DNA of 16,422 bases from a virus (Duplodnaviria > Heunggongvirae > Uroviricota > Caudoviricetes). Under the pieces are notes generated by a model, which was given only the letters and a program-made list of their open reading frames with translations, searched no databases and was not told where the DNA came from. How positions within the stretch are numbered: position 1 is the stretch's first letter; each line of letters opens with the position of its first letter. The DNA lies in the IMG/VR virus record IMGVR_UViG_2541047794_000004; one strand, written 5' to 3'. Shown in pieces: positions 1-9,777 of the stretch. The translations under genes and the position numbers were made by a program.

Positions 1-171
1 TCAATAAATCCCATCATTGCGATCAACCTCATCCTTAACCATTGATGCGAGCAGTTCTTCCAGTTTCTGCGCTGACAGCTTTACCTGGTGATCTTCAGCA
101 TCTTCCCGGGCTATTGTGGTTCGCGCAGTGGCTGATTTTGCTGACATCACCACAGGGGGCAGACGGACCAT
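1..171 (-). CDS. Hypothetical small protein (about 47-56 aa); start ambiguous
   Basis: Open frame ends with TGA (revcomp of tca at 1-3). Minus-strand ATG at 169-171 is preceded by GGAGG about 10 nt upstream; an alternative ATG lies at 145-147. The first ~45 codons of the 93-aa track ORF cross the tfa-like terminator hairpin and are probably non-coding. No family recognised. Confidence 0.3.
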   Translation of the reverse strand: MVRLPPVVMSAKSATARTTIAREDAEDHQVKLSAQKLEELLASMVKDEVDRNDGIY

Positions 172-235
172 TGAACCATGGCCTCCGGAACAAATAAGGG
201 CAAAAATAACAACCACTATCGAAAGCTCACAAACT

Positions 236-451
236 AACCGCAGCACGTTCCTGCATACGACGTGTCTGCGGCATAATCCCAATGATTACTCCCTGACAGG
301 GTTTGCAGGCCACTCAATATCAGGTGCAGTTGATGTATCAACACGATTCAACAATACCCGATATTTATTCCATGCCTCCAGCAACGATCTTTCTTCCTCC
401 GTTGCGATTTCCAGATCTACAGCATCCTGCAGTGGCGCAATATACTCACTG
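236..451. repeat. Direct repeat copy A: tfa 3' coding end plus 3' UTR hairpin, roughly 90% identical to 1286..1500
   Basis: By-eye alignment of 236-451 with 1286-1500 shows long identical runs (e.g. ggcataatcccaatgattactccctgacaggg, ctcaatatcaggtgcagttgatgtatcaacac). Includes an imperfect hairpin at 238-271. Confidence 0.85.
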
Positions 452-555
452 AATTCCTGGATGTAGAACTGTGTGGTGACGGTCTTCCAGCCATTCGGCT
501 CCTGCTGTATCGAAGCATACCAGGCTATTTCAATATCGCTATGCTGCGGCAGCAT
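286..555 (-). CDS. Short Tfa-like protein (89 aa): C-terminal ~50 aa match the tail fiber assembly protein C-terminus, with a novel 35-aa N-terminus; possible remnant or short paralog
   Basis: C-terminus [52 protein letters not shown] is near-identical to the C-terminus of the 194-aa Tfa at 1335..1919. ATG at 553-555 with AGGGG 4 nt upstream on the minus strand. Confidence 0.55.
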
Positions 556-611: not shown

Positions 612-623
612 ATGGTGAAATCA

Positions 624-1280
624 ATGAAAAAAAACACAGATGATGGGGCTAAAATTTACACACCACTTACCCTAAAGCTTTATGACTGGTGGGTTTTGGG
701 AGTATCAAATCGGCTTGCATGGGGATGTCCTACAAAGGAACACCTTCTTCCACACTTTCTGGAACATGTAGGTAACAACCATCTGGATATTGGTGTTGGA
801 ACTGGGTTTTACCTTACTCACGTACCTGAGAGTAGTCTGATATCTTTAATGGATTTGAACGAAGCTAGCCTGAACGCGGCATCTACAAGGGCTGGGGAAT
901 CAAAAATTAAACATAAAATTAGCCATGATGTTTTTGAACCTTATCCCGCGGCGTTACATGGTCAATTTGATTCCATTTCCATGTTTTACCTTCTTCACTG
1001 CCTGCCTGGAAATATATCTACAAAAAGCTGTGTAATACGCAATGCGGCGCAGGCCTTAACTGACGATGGAACTCTATACGGAGCCACAATTCTTGGCGAT
1101 GGAGTTGTGCACAATAGCTTCGGTCAAAAACTGATGCGCATTTACAATCAGAAAGGCATCTTTTCAAACACAAAAGATTCCGAAGAAGGCTTAACACATA
1201 TACTCTCAGAGCATTTCGAGAATGTTAAAACCAAGGTTCAAGGTACTGTAGTAATGTTTTCCGCTTCAGGGAAAAAATAG
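624..1280 (+). CDS. Class I SAM-dependent methyltransferase (orphan, about 218 aa; alternative start ATG 612)
   Basis: Glycine-rich motif I LDIGVGTG, acidic motif II-like LMDLNEA, and DSISMFYLLHCLP / LTDDGTLYGATI segments typical of a Rossmann-fold MTase. GGTGA 5 nt upstream of ATG 624. Low GC relative to the tail genes. No DPPY/NPPY or PCQ DNA-MTase motifs seen. TAG stop at 1278-1280. Confidence 0.7.
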   Translation: MKKNTDDGAKIYTPLTLKLYDWWVLGVSNRLAWGCPTKEHLLPHFLEHVGNNHLDIGVGTGFYLTHVPESSLISLMDLNEASLNAASTRAGESKIKHKISHDVFEPYPAALHGQFDSISMFYLLHCLPGNISTKSCVIRNAAQALTDDGTLYGATILGDGVVHNSFGQKLMRIYNQKGIFSNTKDSEEGLTHILSEHFENVKTKVQGTVVMFSASGKK

Positions 1281-1285
1281 CATCC

Positions 1286-1500
1286 AACCGCAGCACGTTC
1301 TTGCTTAAGACGTGCTGCGGCATAATCCCAATGATTACTCCCTGACAGGGTTCGTAGGCCACTCAATATCAGGTGCAGTTGATGTATCAACACGGTTCAG
1401 CAACACCCGATACTTTTTCCAGGCTTCCAGCAATGAGGTTTCTTCCTCCGTTGCAATTTCCAGATCTGCAGCATCCTGAAGCGGCGCAATATGCTCACTG
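1286..1500. repeat. Direct repeat copy B: 3' end of tfa plus its 3' UTR hairpin
   Basis: See copy A; same orientation, roughly 90% identity over about 215 bp. Confidence 0.85.
1288..1320 (-). terminator. Hairpin downstream of tfa (perfect 11-bp stem ccgcagcacgt / acgtgctgcgg); possible bidirectional terminator between convergent tfa and the methyltransferase
   Basis: Perfect inverted repeat at 1288-1298 and 1310-1320. On the minus strand a T-run follows about 10 nt downstream (revcomp of gaaaaaatag), further than in a canonical intrinsic terminator, so function is uncertain. Confidence 0.45.
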
Positions 1501-1919
1501 GCTACCTGCATCAGGTTGTTTTTTGTTTCTTCCGCCTCCCGGATCCGGAACAGTTTTTCTGCTTCCGTATCCTTCACCCAGGCTGTGCCGTTCCACTTCT
1601 GAAACTCCCCTTCCGGCGATAACCAGGTAACATTTTCCGGTAACGGACCGAGTTCAGAAATAAATAACTCGTCCCCTGACGCTACGTCATAAACCGTTTT
1701 CCCCCGATGGTCTTCAACGAGATGCCACGATGCCTCATCACTGTTGAAAACAGCCACAAAGCCAGCAGGAATATCTGGTGGTGCAATATCGGTACTGTTT
1801 GCTGGCAGACCTGTATGAGGCGGAATATATGCGTCACCTTCACCAATAAATTCATTAGTTCCGGCCAGCAGATTATAAATTTTTATGGTCCGTGCTTGTT
1901 CACTCATTCTGAATGCCAT
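1335..1919 (-). CDS. tfa: Tail fiber assembly protein Tfa (194 aa)
   Basis: Translation [39 protein letters not shown]... matches my recollection of lambda Tfa (orf-194) along its length and has the same 194-aa size. ATG overlaps the stf stop (TAATG). Confidence 0.93.
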
Positions 1920-4900
1920 TATGCAAGCCTCACAATATAGTTAAATGCGATGTTTTTGACGGTGTTTTCCGCGTTACCCGCAGCGTTAACGGTGATGGTG
2001 TGTCCATGTGAACCAATCGCAACGGAGTGCGTATGCGCACCAATACCTACAGTATGTGCATGTGCGCCAGAACTTGCTGCAGTACCAGACAGCGAGTGGG
2101 TATGAGCACCTGCTGACTGTGTCTGAATACGTTGATAATACGATCTATAGGAAGAAGTCTCCGGGCTTACTTGATACTGTGAATTCTGGACATAAGTGAA
2201 CCCACCGCCATCATAAAATGCTAACGCAGAACCGCCGCCTCCTGGCCAACGAATACCATTACCATGAGTATGAACACCGGCAGACCCCGTAGAGCCACTC
2301 AGACTGTGCGTATGCGCCCCGGTGTTATTCGTGGATTTAGTGCCGTAATCAAACGACGATGTGGTTTTCGTCCCCAAATCCGTACTGGATGCGCTGGCGC
2401 TGTGGGTGTGCGATTTTATGCCGTCCTGTTCCTGAGACAATACGGCCCGGCCACTGGCGGGTTTGCCCTTAATCGTCCAGCCACGCATATCAGGGATCAC
2501 GCCTGACGGATAAGCCGCTGCAAGTTTCGGGTAGGCAGATTTGTTAAAAGTCTGCCCCTGCATCAGGGCATAACCAGACGGAACGGTATCTGATGGCCAC
2601 GGGATTGGTGCGCCAACTGGGTAGCTTTCTGGTGGAAGATTTTTCGAGGTATAAACTTCTGCCCAGTCTTCCTCAAAACCATAACCGTCTCTTGAAGAAC
2701 GGTAGAACAGACCACGATTTCTGTAATGCGCCTTCATCTGCAGGGTCCGGCAACTTCCGACTCCGGTATAGAAGTTAACCAGAATATAGCTGTCGCCAGA
2801 GCGGGCGACATTGTAAGCGCCTGATTCGGCATTCCAGGGAACGGCTCCATTCGAATCCGCATAAGCCCCCGTCGAACGTCGGGCAAATGCACCAATATTT
2901 TCCGGCGTGAGGTTAATATCCGCCGAGCCATCAAACTTAACACCGTTAATTTTTGGGGCTGCCGCAAGTTTCGTCGCGGTATCGGCGTTCCCCTTCAGTG
3001 CCCCGGTGATCCCATCAGTAACAGACAACGGACCTGAAATAGTCCCTCCAGTCGTTGGCAGCGCTCCAATATCTGATGGTGTAGGTTTCTGATGTGAGCT
3101 ATACATCGTATAAACAACACCACCGGTAACGCTGGAAGGCTTACTCGCTGAATATGTTGGCGAGGTATAAATAGAAACTGACGCATTTGCAGTACAATCC
3201 CAATGGATATTTACACTCGTCGCATAATTGCCAATCTCAACGTAAATATCATATGTATCGCCGGATGTGTTGATCCAGGCGAAATTCGTTAATCCGACGG
3301 CTGTACGCTTCCACAAAGCCCCGGTAATTCCTTTGGGGTTTCCATTGCCTGCTCGTAGAACCAGTTCTGAAATGCCTGCCTGATGTGGGGAACCGACGTT
3401 GTAACCAGCGCCACCAATCAATGCGATGTAAACGATGGAACTCGCTTGTGGCATGGTAACCGTTGCCAGTTTGAACCACCCAGCCCCGCCAGAGAAAGAG
3501 ATCGTTACTGAATTTAAAGTGCCAATATCTTTCGGTGTTAATGTTATATCCGCAGTCAGTGCTTTCCCGTTAACTTTTCGGTTAGATGGTACCCTGCCAT
3601 TCGCATTGTCATTCGCTGCTTTAACTGCCTTCGGTGTCGCGGCAAGCGTTTCAGATGTGATGTTGGTCGCACTGCTGAGCTGTACTATCCCCTTTTTCGT
3701 CGTACTTGCATCCTCAAGCGCCACGGCGGATGCAATATCCTCTGCCCGTTTTGCCGCTGTCTCGGCGCGCGTTGCCGCGGATTCCGCCGTACTTTTGCTC
3801 TGTGCTGCCGCCGTCGCACTGCCAGCTGCCTCTGTCGCCTTCGCGGATGCTGTCGTGGCGCTGCCCTTCGCTGCTGACGCCTGTCTGGTCGCCTCATCTT
3901 TTGAAGCAGACGCCGATGATGCCGATGACGCCGCCGAACTGGCGGACGATGCGGCAGCCGTTTTTGAGGATTCTGCGCTGGTCTCCGACGCTTTCGCGTT
4001 CGTCTCCGATGTCTTCGCTGCGGAAGCAGACCTCGCTGCTGCACTGGCCTGTTCAGTGGCTTCGCCAGCCTTCGTTGTGGCTGTTGAAGCGGACGATGCG
4101 GCGCTTTCTGCCGATTTTCCGGCGGCGCTAGCACTGGCTGAGGCCTGCCCGGCACTTGTTGACGCTGCACTGGCAGACGACGCAGCCGCTGTTTTTGAGC
4201 CTGCTGCTGCGGAGGCACTCTGTGCTGCTGCCGTTTCAGAGGACTTAGCGTTTGTCTCAGACGTCTTTGCCGCCTTCGCGGAATTTCCTGCCGCCGTTGC
4301 CGAGGAAGCGGCATTACTGGCGCTCGAGGCTGCGCTCGTTTCTGATAATTTTGCCGCCTCTTTTGAAGCCGACGCATCTCTGGCTGAGGTGGCTGCTTCT
4401 GACGCTTTCGTGGTCGCGGTGGATGCAGAAGTGGCAGCTGATTGTTGTGACGCTGCCGCATTCGTTTCTGACGTTTTCGCCGCACCGGCACTGGTGGCCG
4501 CCGCGCTTTTTGAGGACTCTGCAGCGGCAGCACTTTTTGATGCTTCAGTGGCCTTTGCTGATGCCGTTCCTGCGCTGGAAGACGCAGACTGAGCCGACGA
4601 AGCGGCCTGTCCGGCTGACGTGCTGGCTGCTCGTGCTGAGCCTGCAGCATCAGTCGCACGGGTTGCCGCCTCACGGGCTGATGTGCTGGCATCGCTGGCT
4701 GATTTCTTCGCGGCTGCCGTGTTCTGTGCCACCGCGGACGCGTTACGCGCCACCTCTTCCACCATCAGTTCAAAGCGGCGCAGTGCCTCAGGACGGGCAT
4801 CATCCTCCGTCATGGCACCGAGAAAATCATTCAGCGTACCGGGTCGGGAATCTTCATACACGGTGATGGTCCCGGCATGTGACGGCGGGAATCCTTCCAC

Positions 4901-5089
4901 CAACAGAATAACGCTGTACTGACCGTACTCAACGTCCATGCTGTAACGCCCGGCTTCATCCGGATTTTCTGAGGCCAGCGTGTTCACCACCACCGTGGTG
5001 CTGTTACGTTTTGCTTTCAGCTGGATTGTGCAGTTCTGTACCGGTTTTCCTGTGCCGTCTTTCAGTACACCTGAAATCTTTACTGCCAT
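1919..5089 (-). CDS. stf: Side tail fiber protein Stf, full length (about 1056 aa from ATG 5087-5089; track ORF starts at upstream GTG 5095)
   Basis: N-terminus [26 protein letters not shown]... and C-terminus ...[49 protein letters not shown] match lambda Stf as I recall it. Long Ala/Ser/Thr-rich repeat tract. [10 protein letters not shown] and [11 protein letters not shown] tail-fiber repeat motifs in the central part. Confidence 0.9.
3731..4744. repeat. Low-complexity Ala/Ser/Thr-rich imperfect tandem repeat tract inside stf
   Basis: Stf residues about 118-455 consist of recurring AKTSETNA(K/A)..., SASTATTKA(S/G)EA..., SAASSAS units. The same composition bias produces long spurious ORFs in the other frames (3435..4592 +, 3685..4692 -). 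Confidence 0.8.
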
Positions 5090-5100
5090 ATTCACCCCAC

Positions 5101-5153: not shown

Positions 5154-5753
5154 TCAGAATTTATAACCGACACCAACGATGAAACTGTTGGTACGCCAGT
5201 CACCGCTGCCGGAGCCTTCATAAGCGACATCAACGGCCACGGATTCTGTCGGGTTAAACTGCACGCCAGCCCCCCACGCCAGAGACGTGTTGCTGTGGCG
5301 ACCGTCATCACTTCCGGTCAGCACATCGTGCGTTTTCCCCGTATTGTCGGTCACCTGCAGATAATCCCCGGAGAAAGTCGACACACGGCTGTAAGCCACA
5401 CCCGCCATCGCATACGCGCTGAACCATTCATTCACGCGCACAGACGGCCCCGCCATCACGCTGAACCAGCGGTTACGCACGGAATCTTCATGCCAGCGGG
5501 TATCGCTGTAATGCGTTTTTTGCTCATCTTCAGCGTTGGCATAACTGAATGACGTAATCAGCCCCAGCGTGTCCGTAAACTCATAACGGTATTTCACGTT
5601 AATCCCGTTCAGATTATCGCTGCCGGGAGCGTTCGTACGGGCATGAAGATACCCTGCGCTCAGTGTGGCCTGCTGCTCAGACGCCCATGCAGGCGCACCG
5701 GATACGGCCAGACAGATGGCTGCGGACAAAATGGCTGCACAAACTTTACGCAT
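5154..5753 (-). CDS. lom: Lom/Ail-family outer membrane beta-barrel protein (199 aa)
   Basis: N-terminal signal peptide [24 protein letters not shown]. Motifs [17 protein letters not shown] and the C-terminus [23 protein letters not shown] match lambda Lom as I recall it. Sits between J and stf as in lambda. GAGAGG RBS. Confidence 0.9.
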
Positions 5754-5777: not shown

Positions 5778-5801
5778 AAAAAAGGCACCATTTCTGGTGC
5801 C
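5778..5801 (-). terminator. Rho-independent terminator between J and lom
   Basis: Stem ggcacca (5784-5790) / tggtgcc (5795-5801) with a 4-nt loop; followed on the minus strand by a U6 tract (plus-strand A6 at 5778-5783). Confidence 0.65.
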
Positions 5802-5820
5802 CGTATCTGGGTTATAAAAT

Positions 5821-8800
5821 TCAGCTAATCGTGATGCCTGCAGTGGCTTTCTTCATCACCACAACCAGCAAATCGCTGATACTTGCTGTGGGATACCAGT
5901 TATTTACCAGCCATGCTGACACCGAAAACTCCAGTGTCATGTGACCGTGACCGGCAGGCATATCAATAACGCCACTGTAAATCAGCGTATTATCCAGCGC
6001 GGTACGGTTATAAATTTCAGCACCGTTTTTCCGCACTATCAGACGGCATGAGGAGTAAATATCAGTATGCTCTTTCTCATGTTTAGCGCCGCTGAATGCC
6101 ACCGCCGGAATAACAATCTGCCGGTCAAACGGCTGATCGTCATAAACCCTGACGGTAATGGTTCCTGATGGCCACCGCTCCGGTGCACGGGAGTCCCGGG
6201 GGAAAGCTTTGCCCACTGTTTTAACGAGATCGCCTTCAATCTGGTTCGCGGACAATTTTCCCAGAACCCGACAGTTCTCGTTAATCGTGACGTTGTTGAG
6301 CGTCCCGGAGTTCGCATTCACGTTACCGCTGATATCGGCATTTTTCGCCGTCAGCCGCCCGTCCGGTGTCAGGGAAAATGCCGGAGGATTACCGCCGCTG
6401 GTAATGGTGGGGGCCGTCAGGCGTTTCAGGAACACTTCATTCATGAATATCTGATCGCCCTGACCAACAAACATCGGCTTTGTGTTGCCATTCGCAGGAT
6501 TAATCATCGCAATCCTGTCTGCTGCCAGCAGCACCTGACTCTGCATGCCGTCAGGGGTGTTCTCAATACCGGCACCGATACCCGCAATATAAAGGCGTCC
6601 GTCCTGCATCTGCTGCAGCTTCACTGCCCACATGCTGTTCAGGTTATTATTTGTATCAACCTGAACCTTCTGTATCTGCTGGATCGCTGCACTCTGGTCT
6701 TCCAGTTTCTTATTGACGGTCTGTGTTATTTCATTGCTGACATCCGTTATGGACGTCCTGATTTCAGTCAGGTCAGGCGCAAGCTGACCGTTATCAATCT
6801 GCGTCCACAGCTCCTGAGCCAGATGGGTTTTCCCTATCTCGCCTTTGAAAAAATCCAGATAGCCTGATGCATCATCACTCGGCTGACCGACAGCCTCCAC
6901 GAATGCCGATTTGCCAACGGTGTTCACACTGCGAACGTAAAAATAATAATCATGGCCCGGTTTGATATTGATACTGGCGGCTATCCAGTACAGTGCCGTA
7001 CCAAGATAACGCGCGCTGGTTTCAACCTGCCTGATATCCGCAATCCGTTTTTCCGAGAACCAGAACTCAAACTGTACCGTCGGATCATAAACCGCAAGAT
7101 GCGGCGTGGCGGTTATCTGAAAATAGCCCGGCGTCAGCTCAATCCGCGACGGTGCTGCCGGTGCGGCAATCCGGAATGATACCGACGCCGGATCACCCTG
7201 CTGCCCCCAGGCATTTACCGCCCTGACTGTCAGCCTGTAGTTCCCCAGCGCCAGCTGCCTGAAGCGGTATGTGGTTTCCGTCGTCCGGGCCGTGCTGACC
7301 AGCCGCTCACTGCCGTCATCCGCTGTTACGGTCAGACGGAGCAGGAAGCTCACGCCCTTCACCACCTTCGGCGTGTCCCAGCGGGCCAGCACCTGATATT
7401 CCCCGCTGTCTGCGGTGACTTCGGCAGTCAGGTGCTGCACCGCTGGCGGCGTGACACCATTCACCGTGCCGCTCTGGTCGCCGTCAAAGTGCGCCCCGTT
7501 ATCCACGATGGCTTCTTTTTCCGGTACATGCTGCACGGCGGTGATGGCATACGTGCCGTCGTCGTTCTCACGGATACTCACGCAGCGGAACAGGCGCTGG
7601 CGCAGCGTCGGCAGCTTCAGCCCCCACACGCTGTATTCAGCAACGCCGTCAGGAACACGGCTCACTTTCACCTTCACGCCGTCGGTGACGGACTGGACCT
7701 CCACGCTGACCGGATTCCCCTGTCCGTCAACCAGGCTTATCAGCGTGGTGCCGGAGGATGGCAGCGTGATTTCACGGTCGAGCGTCAGTGTCCGCGTCTG
7801 GCTGTTCACCGCCAGCACGCGCCCGCCGATGCTGATACCCGCATAGTCATCATCACAGATTTCAATGACATCGCCCGGTACATGGCGAAGCCCTTCTGCA
7901 CCCACGCTGAAGTCCACGGTCTGCGTTTCCAGCAGCTCCGTTTTAATCAGCCACAGCCCGGCGCGGTGTGCCTGCCCCCGGCTGGTACAGCCAAAGGCAT
8001 CCATCTTCGTGACGTTACGACCGTAACGGAGAATGGCCTGCGTATCTTCAACAAGCTCTGTCGCCGTCTCCCAGCCGTTATTCGGGTCAATCCAGTTCAC
8101 CTCAACGGCATTATGGCGGTCCTTCAGGGCGCTGAAGCTGTAGCGGAACGGCGCGCCATCATCCGGCATCACCACATTACTGCGGTTATAGGTCCACACC
8201 TTATCCGACGGTCGGTCCTGCACGAACGTCAGCGTCTGCCCGTTCCATACCGGCATACAGCGCATCGCCGAGCAGAAATCACTGAGAACATCCCACGCCT
8301 TACGCTGTGTGGTCAGGTAGGCATTACAGGTGATGCGCGGCTCCGTGCCACCAAAGCCATCCGGCACTGACTGATCGCAATACTGGCCGATGACATACAG
8401 CGCCCATTTGTCCACATCCGCCGCACCAAGACGTTTCCCCATGCCGTAGCGCGGGTGGGTCAGCATATCCCACAGACACCAGGCCATGTTGTTGCTGTAT
8501 GCCGGTTTAAACGTCCCGTCCCAGATACCGTTGTATTGCCGCGTCTGCGGGTTATAGTTCGACGGCACCTGCAGAATGCGCCCGCGAAGATGATAATTAC
8601 GGCTCACCTGCTGGCTGCCGAACTGCTCCGAATCCACCTGCACGCCGACCAGTGCCGTGTTCGGGTAGCCCTGTTTCACATCGATGATTTCGGTGTATGA
8701 CGACCAGAGCGTTTTGTTCTGCAGCTGGTCTGTGGTGCTGTCCGGCGTCATCCTGCGCATCCGTATATTGAACGGGCGCGGCGGCAGGTTACCCACCACC

Positions 8801-9300
8801 ACCGAGGCCAGATACTGCGAGGTGGTTTTGCCCTTAATGGTGATGTCTTTTTCCGTCACCCAGCCACCATTACGTTGTATCTGAACCAGCAGGCGAACTT
8901 CCGACGGATTCCTGTCCCCCTTTGAGGTGGTTTCCACCAGTGCCTGCACACCGAAGGTAAAACGCAGTCGGTCAATGTTTGCCGACGTGATGGTCCGGGT
9001 GATCGGCGTGTCGTATTTCACTTCCGTACCCAGTACCGTCTCGGAACCTGATGATTCAAATCCCTCCGGCGGTGTCTGTTCCTGCTCACCTGCCCGGAAC
9101 ACCACCGTGACACCAGAGATGTTAGTATTCCCCTCACTGTCCAGCACCGGTGTACTGTTCAGCAGCACGCTTTTTAATCCATCCACCGGACCTTCAACCG
9201 GCCCTTCGCTGATGGCATCGATCACACTCAGCAGCTGCGTGGACTTCAGGTTGTCCCTCGCTTCGCGCGGGGTATGCCCCTTACTGCTTCCTTTACCCAT
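5821..9300 (-). CDS. J: Tail tip / host specificity protein J (1159 aa), central fibre and receptor-binding protein
   Basis: N-terminus [34 protein letters not shown]... and most of the length match lambda gpJ as I recall it; the last ~150 aa look divergent. GGAG 8 nt upstream of the ATG. Confidence 0.95.
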
Positions 9301-9311
9301 TCCTCACACTC

Positions 9312-9342
9312 CATAAACAACAAAGCCGCCCAAAAGGCGGCT
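9312..9342 (-). terminator. Rho-independent terminator after the lipoprotein moron, immediately upstream of the J start
   Basis: Stem agccgcc (9324-9330) / ggcggct (9336-9342) with loop caaaa; followed on the minus strand by a U-rich run (uuguuguuuau). Confidence 0.65.
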
Positions 9343-9366
9343 CATGAGTTACGGCAGGATTAACTA

Positions 9367-9705
9367 TTATTTACATGCATTAACACTATCAGCAAAAATT
9401 TTTGGCGTTAATGCTGGTACACGTTCATAAAGAGTAAAACTACTGCCATTTCCTGCTTTTTTGATATCAAGCACAACATCATATCCCCCCATAGCCTGTG
9501 GAACTAAAAGGCTTACCCCATTCTCAATAGGAAGGGATGTTATAGGTGTTCCATTACCAGCCCATTGTCTGGATATGCAGCCTGACAATTCATCAATATT
9601 TTTTAATGAATTACCTTCCATTACAGGTTTTCCGGATTTTACGTAATCCAAAGACTTACATCCTGTTAAGGCAATAATCGTGCAGAATAAAATCGTTTTG
9701 TTCAT
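9367..9705 (-). CDS. Predicted lipoprotein (about 112 aa) of unknown function; moron inserted between I and J
   Basis: Signal peptide with lipobox MNKTILFCTIIALTGC (L-T-G-C). Low GC. Promoter-like AT-rich upstream region and its own terminator. Track ORF begins at an upstream TTG (9717); ATG at 9703-9705 preferred. Confidence 0.6.
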   Translation of the reverse strand: MNKTILFCTIIALTGCKSLDYVKSGKPVMEGNSLKNIDELSGCISRQWAGNGTPITSLPIENGVSLLVPQAMGGYDVVLDIKKAGNGSSFTLYERVPALTPKIFADSVNACK

Positions 9706-9717
9706 ATAGCTAACCAA

Positions 9718-9777
9718 TAGAATAATTATCAGTGTTCGATATAAATATTAAATCAGTTAGAACATGAGTAAATAATA
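9718..9777 (-). promoter_or_regulatory. AT-rich intergenic region upstream of the lipoprotein gene; possible promoter (TGATAAT element around 9724-9731)
   Basis: About 60 bp of very AT-rich sequence between the I stop and the lipoprotein start, containing extended -10-like TGATAAT on the minus strand. No clear -35; weak prediction. Confidence 0.25.

Follow-up and report, generated by a model that had tools for sequence, protein, structure and literature searches.

The J gene of the window

The DNA analysed here, referred to as the window, comprises 16,422 nucleotides (nt) of IMG/VR virus record IMGVR_UViG_2541047794_000004 (Caudoviricetes). This work concerns its interval 5821-6300, which is the 3' end of gene J, coding for the tail tip attachment protein. 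According to the list of open reading frames (ORFs) and their translation, positions 5821-9300 of the minus strand are occupied by an uninterrupted 3480-nt ORF that codes for a J protein of 1159 amino acids (aa) plus stop. J is surrounded by a lambda tail cluster, with the tape measure gene and homologues of M, L, K and I upstream and with lom, side fibre and assembly genes downstream. ORFs, Pfam matches, RefSeq annotation and the lambda map all place J downstream of H-M-L-K-I, with lom and the side fibre genes following. Lambda has the same neighbourhood (I upstream of J; lom, stf and tfa downstream).

The protein is matched over its full length by NCBIfam NF049904 lambda_TipJ (2387.9 bits, cutoff 1950; aa 1-1159 versus profile 1-1163). 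The complete series of lambda J Pfam domains is present, namely FNIII-A_GpJ (aa 86-207), Phage-tail_3 (330-496) and Ig_J (610-714) in the N-terminal part, followed by Ig_J_second (716-818), Phage_Tail_Tip (872-1000) and Ig_GpJ_C (1029-1159) in the C-terminal part. This is the domain order expected of a lambda-type J, whose architecture consists of hub domains, two FNIII/Ig domains, a helical shaft, a beta-prism fibre and a C-terminal Ig-like receptor-binding domain (RBD) (Ge et al., PMC11101478). By homology to the solved lambda and A8 trimers, the window J would form a trimer at the tail tip. The parts of the gene, as delimited by the analyses below, are as follows.

5821..9300, minus strand: J, tail tip attachment protein, 1159 aa plus stop (ORF, lambda_TipJ, Pfam series)
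6886..9300, minus strand: J aa 1-805, hub and two FNIII/Ig domains, lambda type (aa and DNA identity to lambda)
6451..6885, minus strand: J aa 806-950, alpha-helical shaft and upper central straight fibre, phage-21/mEp460/VT1-Sakai type (alignments)
6295..6450, minus strand: J aa 951-1002, lower fibre segment conserved across all J types (six-gene alignment, 94% to lambda)
5824..6294, minus strand: J aa 1003-1159, diverged C-terminus (40.7% to lambda over aa 1011-1159)
5824-6216, minus strand: Ig-like RBD proper, J aa 1029-1159 (Pfam PF12421)

Divergence from lambda J and mosaic structure

Lambda J (NC_001416, 15505-18903) was used as reference in a global protein alignment. Identity is 97.9% over aa 1-805, drops to 32.6% over aa 806-900 (with 27-28 gap columns) and 60% over aa 901-950, returns to 94% over aa 951-1000 and is 40.7% over aa 1011-1159 (43% in an alignment of the RBD). 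The block of shaft and upper fibre, aa 806-950, is 27 residues longer in the window J than in lambda J. As a side observation, the lambda counterpart of this block is a part that refolds in receptor-triggered opening.

These values bear on an initial annotation of the interval, whose quoted peptides are all found within the J ORF. It had described the first ~1000 residues as very close to lambda, which holds for aa 1-805 and 951-1000 but not for aa 806-950 (33-60% identity, 27-codon insertion). It had further claimed that the last ~150 aa differ substantially from lambda, and this was confirmed: identity of 40.7% lies far below the mark of more than 90% at which that claim was to be given up. 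Since the divergence begins near aa 1003 (window ~6294), the interval 5821-6300 had been placed accurately. The domain swap at the J C-terminus that it proposed gains support from the reciprocal mosaic with lambda and VT1-Sakai described below.

Lambda J, archetype of LamB-binding proteins (PDB 8xcj/8xck/8iyk), thus shares domain order, Pfam RBD family and N-terminus with the window J. It differs in the RBD (41-43% identical) and in the shaft block (33% identical and 27 aa shorter), and its receptor is LamB. Assignment of the window RBD to the LamB-binding lambda allele was rejected, identity being 40.7% over aa 1011-1159 and 43% when the RBDs are aligned. A lambda-like J C-terminal match, 43.8% identical to the window domain and lying at lambda-like coordinates, was also noted in phage record MW057783.1 ("Campylobacter phage CJLB-4", 48,361 bp). 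This record looks like lambda itself and is possibly a contaminant.

To describe the composition of the gene, J genes of the window, lambda, phage 21, mEp460_4F5, 434 and VT1-Sakai were aligned. From nt 1 to 2087, the window gene is 92-99% identical to lambda and 56-84% to VT1-Sakai J; when extended to nt ~2400 (aa 1-800), the respective ranges are 92-99% and 56-90%. From nt ~2460 to 2880 (aa 821-960), it is 90-100% identical to phage 21, mEp460 and VT1-Sakai and 12-85% to lambda. From nt 2988 to 3480 (aa 996-1159), identity reaches 99-100% to VT1-Sakai and 50-68% to lambda. Phage 21 and mEp460_4F5 J have shaft and fibre as in the window up to about aa 1020 (90-100% of nt). They differ in the RBD, which is 69% identical and has loops of other sequence and length, and nt identity of phage 21 to the window J falls from ~90% to 37-75% beyond aa ~1020. 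The J gene is therefore a three-part mosaic with lambda-type N-terminus, phage-21/VT1-Sakai-type shaft and VT1-Sakai/PPompW-type C-terminus. The reciprocal identity pattern provides direct evidence for transfer of the C-terminal module from one J backbone to another. Identity transitions sit in or beside aa 951-1002, a segment conserved in all six genes, which is likely to be a recombination junction. Recombination within conserved J stretches would have joined a lambda-type hub, a longer phage-21-type shaft and the RBD.

Fold and variable segments of the receptor-binding domain

The C-terminal domain is recognized by Pfam PF12421 Ig_GpJ_C at aa 1029-1159 with 127.5 bits (gathering threshold 26.2, E = 4.8e-37, profile positions 1-135 of 135). 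A large protein collection contained 184 relatives, nearly all of which are E. coli proteins under the names J, host specificity protein or phage tail tip protein. An alignment of 35 sequences from this family was used both for structure prediction with AlphaFold2 and for estimation of variability.

The AlphaFold2 model of the RBD has nine strands (mean pLDDT 80.4). Its top four Foldseek matches in PDB, 9wca, 9wcb, 8xck and 8xcj (E 1e-16 to 1e-18, TMq 0.76-0.78), are A8 gpJ in closed and OmpC-bound state and lambda J in closed and LamB-bound state; for 9wcb, the complex of A8 with OmpC G17, TMq is 0.76 and E 1e-17. The predicted structure is an Ig-like beta-sandwich as in solved J RBDs. When solved structures were searched, "A8 gpJ 713" (9wca/9wcb) was the best match as well (E = 3e-109), ahead of lambda J.

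Family members vary mainly in four segments, some of which contain insertions or deletions, and the model places each of the four in a loop or at a hairpin tip.

6166..6198, minus strand: hypervariable segment 1, aa 1035-1045, loop between strands (entropy peak and indels; AlphaFold2 model)
6058..6087, minus strand: hypervariable segment 2, aa 1072-1081, beta-hairpin tip in which relatives insert up to 7 aa (alignment, AlphaFold2 model)
5977..6009, minus strand: hypervariable segment 3, aa 1098-1108, beta-hairpin tip (alignment, AlphaFold2 model)
5887..5913, minus strand: hypervariable segment 4, aa 1130-1138 (WLVNNWYPT), loop after strand 1120-1131 (alignment, AlphaFold2 model)

The lambda RBD inserts four bottom loops, L1-L4, into LamB (PMC11101478). 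The four hypervariable segments may correspond to these receptor-contacting loops, in line with their loop and hairpin-tip positions in the model.

Identity of the C-terminal allele

In a phage collection, the last 480 nt of the gene are 99.8% identical to J of VT1-Sakai (Sp15), of a series of PPompW prophages and of vB_EcoS-783R2; in many Stx2a and Stx1a phages with long tails, identity is ~97% (Stx, Shiga toxin). At the amino acid level, the RBD is 100% identical to PPompW and vB_EcoS-783R2. VT1-Sakai J shares this end with the window, but its N-terminal 700 aa are different (56-84% of nt). The VT1-Sakai gene (AP000400, 1008-4480 of the stretch compared) is annotated as two overlapping truncated ORFs resulting from a mutation, with the RBD identical; this copy of J is probably defective.

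We further compared the window with GpJ 1A2, a natural J end whose receptor use has been published. The 1A2 DNA is available in the supplement of PMC11338833 and was obtained as machine-read PDF text with dropped bases, which was compared by a frameshift-tolerant alignment of protein to DNA. Against window aa 969-1159, 177 of the 183 readable codons agree, and both sequences end at the same stop. The alignment contains 11 read-induced frameshifts, and the 6 mismatches lie in corrupted stretches, one of them being an impossible in-frame stop. Plain tblastn of the machine-read DNA gave 68% identity and was discarded, this value being misleading because of the read-induced frameshifts. It appears from the aligned codons that the window C-terminus is the 1A2 allele; since the source is corrupted machine-read text, exact identity is probable but not proven. 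The published 1A2 construct has the same C-terminal ~190 aa as the window J. Up to aa 964 it consists of lambda J, so that its shaft is the shorter one of lambda, in contrast to the window shaft, which is 27 aa longer and of phage-21 type.

Receptor of the domain

RBDs of the family were compared with that of the window (receptor in brackets).

lambda (LamB): 43%
434 (OmpC): 45%
Stx2a_WGPS6: 44%
phage 21 (LamB): 69%
mEp460_4F5: 69%
A8 (OmpC): 64%

Phage 21 has LamB as its native receptor, and a single mutation gives it use of OmpC (PMC11336670). Because its RBD is 82% identical to that of the OmpC-binding A8, similarity of 60-80% between RBDs is not predictive of receptor. We thus rejected family resemblance as a basis for receptor assignment, the window domain being 64-69% identical to both phage 21 and A8. 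As the 1A2 match is the only informative one, assignment of OmpC rests on near-identity to 1A2.

A8 gpJ (9wca, closed; 9wcb, open and bound to OmpC G17) is the closest solved structure and an OmpC binder, with the same fold and family as the window RBD and a conserved C-terminal strand. Hairpin 2 is 7 residues longer and loop 1 is 4 residues shorter in A8. The spectrum of OmpC alleles is different too: K-12 OmpC and G1/G2 are used by A8 but not by 1A2. Phage 434 is reported to target OmpC (PMC12502783); 434 and Stx2a_WGPS6 J belong to the same family, with RBDs 44-45% identical to the window and longer loops 1 and 2, and form a separate OmpC-binding lineage. The long-tailed Stx2a phage phi330 needs OmpC (PMC12502783). 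It was rejected as evidence for the window allele, its closest relative WGPS6 having a 434-like RBD (44% to the window). For ECOR-derived PhiR phages with near-identical J, the one paper found (PMC13190303) holds no receptor data, and a receptor-screen preprint (10.64898/2026.04.02.716166) was set aside, as it covers J domains of Drexlerviridae.

Direct functional data exist for 1A2. To retarget particles from LamB to OmpC, Brödel et al. (Nature 2024, PMC11338833) gave lambda J the natural ends A8 and 1A2 in place of its own; the chimeras were selected on a lamB deletion strain. Assay cells were MG1655 without lamB and ompC, carrying one of 23 natural ompC alleles on a plasmid, and in assay particles the lambda side fibre, itself OmpC-binding, was replaced by a P2 chimera that binds lipopolysaccharide (PMC11338833). 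Dependence on OmpC is thus attributable to J. At the highest multiplicity of infection, 1A2 particles gave 76-99% GFP-positive cells with 20 of the 23 alleles (98.3% with allele G17) and at most 2% with alleles G1, G2 and G40 (source data of PMC11338833). Delivery was efficient to the OmpC variant of EDL933 and not to that of MG1655 (PMC11338833); PDB entry 9wcb names its ligand "OmpC G17 from E. coli EDL933". From near-identity to 1A2 and the published 1A2 allele assays it therefore follows that OmpC, recognized in an allele-dependent manner, is most likely the receptor of the window RBD, by analogy with the lambda-1A2 chimera.

Two other views of the receptor were weighed against these data. 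The natural receptor may be another outer-membrane protein (e.g. OmpF or another porin), OmpC being one option of several, or host range may be set by the side fibre and not by J. Lambda and phage 21 J evolve use of OmpF or OmpC by few mutations, with variants using up to three receptors (PMC11336670), the same tail carries a large side fibre of 1058 aa, and in a follow-up preprint on 1A2 particles against O157 strains, delivery needed the matching side fibre (10.1101/2025.02.28.640725). However, the delivery of at most 2% with G1, G2 and G40 was recorded in ompF-carrying cells without lamB and native ompC (PMC11338833), so that OmpF and other K-12 proteins are no substitute for a cognate ompC allele, and the lambda side fibre aids adsorption and is not the ejection trigger (PMC11101478). 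We therefore regard this explanation as improbable.

Even less probable is that the domain still binds LamB like lambda and phage 21, its divergence reflecting neutral drift or adaptation to LamB variants. Fold and family are shared with the lambda RBD, and phage 21, with native receptor LamB (PMC11336670), has the closest RBD among named phages outside the 1A2 group (69%). Yet the four loop segments are unlike phage 21 in sequence and length, and both selection and assay of the 1A2 chimera took place in cells deleted for lamB, where delivery switched on and off with the ompC allele (PMC11338833).

The region is thus very probably the RBD of an intact lambda-type J, which represents the 1A2/VT1-Sakai/PPompW allele and not the LamB-binding one of lambda, and which would dock to OmpC in an allele-dependent manner. 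Several points weigh against this conclusion. Functional data come from a lambda chimera with lambda's shorter shaft and a P2-type side fibre, not from the native context, and the window holds only the tail module of the prophage. Few substitutions can shift the receptor in the J family, as illustrated by the LamB-using phage 21, 82% identical to A8 and 69% to the window. Finally, 6 of the 183 readable 1A2 codons differ, in a machine-read source text with 11 frameshifting errors.

Distribution of the domain

Among 5426 complete E. coli genomes examined for the domain, 3378 contain matches to the 450 nt at the end of the window J. The number of matching places per genome has a median of 2 and a maximum of 9, and the best match is at least 99% identical in 994 E. 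coli records. The corresponding part of lambda J is found in 98 genomes, at 99% identity or more in all cases, the top matches being K-12, B and DE3 laboratory strains. It is apparent from these counts that the "divergent" RBD is the usual one in nature and that of lambda the exception. The altered receptor suggested in the initial annotation is supported by published use of OmpC by essentially the same domain, gpJ 1A2. Such a C-terminus is no rare trait of a prophage, however: it predominates among J proteins of natural E. coli, and its receptor had been worked out. Allele, receptor and distribution are, in fact, already known.

PhiR55_1, an ECOR-derived phage with E. coli C as host, forms plaques. 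Its J gene is 96.1% identical to that of the window over the full length and its RBD 97.5% identical, which supports functionality of this kind of J. Hosts recorded for phages with this RBD in the phage collection are E. coli C or ECOR13, not K-12, which fits, circumstantially, poor recognition of K-12 OmpC. That the J gene is a relic in a defective prophage, devoid of current function in host recognition, is very unlikely. Points in favour of a relic are that the window displays only the tail half of a prophage, that VT1-Sakai J, whose RBD is identical, is annotated as mutationally split, and that several copies are present in many E. coli genomes (up to 9 places). Yet the window J is an uninterrupted ORF of 1159 codons, the flanking tail genes from V to tfa are all intact, as they are in a RefSeq copy 99.8% identical to the window, and a J gene 96% identical serves the plaque-forming PhiR55_1.

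Neighbouring genes and prophage context

Downstream of J, the following features were identified.

5783..5802, minus strand: terminator-like hairpin directly after the J stop (sequence; terminators are annotated at the same place in phages 434 and 21)
5154..5753, minus strand: lom homologue, Ail/Lom outer-membrane beta-barrel (Pfam PF06316, E 3e-125; RefSeq annotation)
1919..5095, minus strand: side tail fibre gene, 1058 aa (Pfam phage_tail_N, Collar, Phage_fiber; RefSeq annotation)
1335..1919, minus strand: tail fibre assembly protein gene (Pfam Caudo_TAP, E 2e-44)

The side tail fibre is a second host-range determinant of the same tail. Just past the tail fibre assembly gene, on the opposite strand, lies an ORF for a protein of 222 aa resembling class I S-adenosylmethionine-dependent methyltransferases (window 612-1280, plus strand; GC content 41%; phrog_2132), which looks like a cargo gene near the prophage end. 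At window 1-466, remnants of genes for a tail fibre assembly protein and for a DUF4376 protein are annotated as pseudogenes in the RefSeq copy (2573-3462 of the stretch compared). In this copy, which comes from E. coli AR_0017 and is 99.8% identical to the window, the prophage end adjoins a truncated ompW beside trpA-yciF-yciE, and the prophage is therefore of the "PPompW" type. The truncated ompW lies ~300-430 bp beyond the window start and represents the prophage/chromosome junction.

Upstream of J, tail genes I and J are separated by an AT-rich insert of 477 nt (window 9301-9777) with GC content of 36%, compared to 56-57% in its flanks. Two features are located in the insert.

9367-9705, minus strand: lipoprotein ORF, 112 aa, with predicted signal MNKTILFCTIIALTG/C (signal peptide prediction; phrog_914)
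9323-9343: terminator of the lipoprotein ORF

The only match of this ORF is phrog_914, whose function is not known. Searches of Pfam, NCBIfam and PADLOC returned no match, nor was there any DNA match among 50,697 phage records. The ORF is found in 337 of the 5426 E. coli genomes. RefSeq annotates solely an 84-aa version, which starts at a later ATG and is without the signal peptide. Lipoproteins encoded beside genes of receptor-binding proteins are known exclusion factors in T5 and phi80/N15. By analogy, we speculate that the predicted lipoprotein might be a receptor-masking exclusion factor.

Proposed mechanism and implications

In lambda, the three RBDs move apart when the receptor is bound; the beta-prism becomes compact and twisted, the helical shaft flips and the tip is opened (PMC11101478). 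A comparable course may be envisaged for the window protein. Three J chains would build the central fibre, with Ig-like RBDs at its tip, while initial adsorption to a surface glycan or protein would be supplied by the side fibre. The four variable loops or hairpin tips of each RBD would then dock into the extracellular mouth of trimeric OmpC. Recognition would depend on the allele, with most natural alleles, including that of O157 EDL933, being recognized and the K-12 allele poorly so. Binding to OmpC would trigger DNA ejection by lambda-like spreading of RBDs, twisting of the fibre, flipping of the shaft and opening of the tip. The native prophage particle is expected to behave like the lambda-1A2 chimera.

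Most sequenced E. coli contain this allele, under the annotation J, and it has served to direct engineered lambda particles to OmpC; for A8, its 64% identical relative, a structure with bound OmpC exists. In annotation, a J ending of this kind in a lambdoid prophage predicts adsorption via OmpC that is allele-dependent, and poor on K-12. This prediction helps to explain difficult propagation on K-12 and which strains can receive such phages. It is also a reminder that the LamB-binding tip of lambda is a rare form in nature.

A broader interpretation is tentative and, in our judgement, rather doubtful. Hypervariable loops of the RBD may track allelic variation in the surface loops of OmpC, so that the commonest prophage tail tip of E. 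coli and the porin would be engaged in an arms race at the level of strains, with the predicted lipoprotein at 9367-9705 acting as a receptor-masking exclusion factor in the same conflict. If this were true, the arms race between RBD loops and OmpC would set which strains exchange lambdoid prophages, including those carrying Stx.

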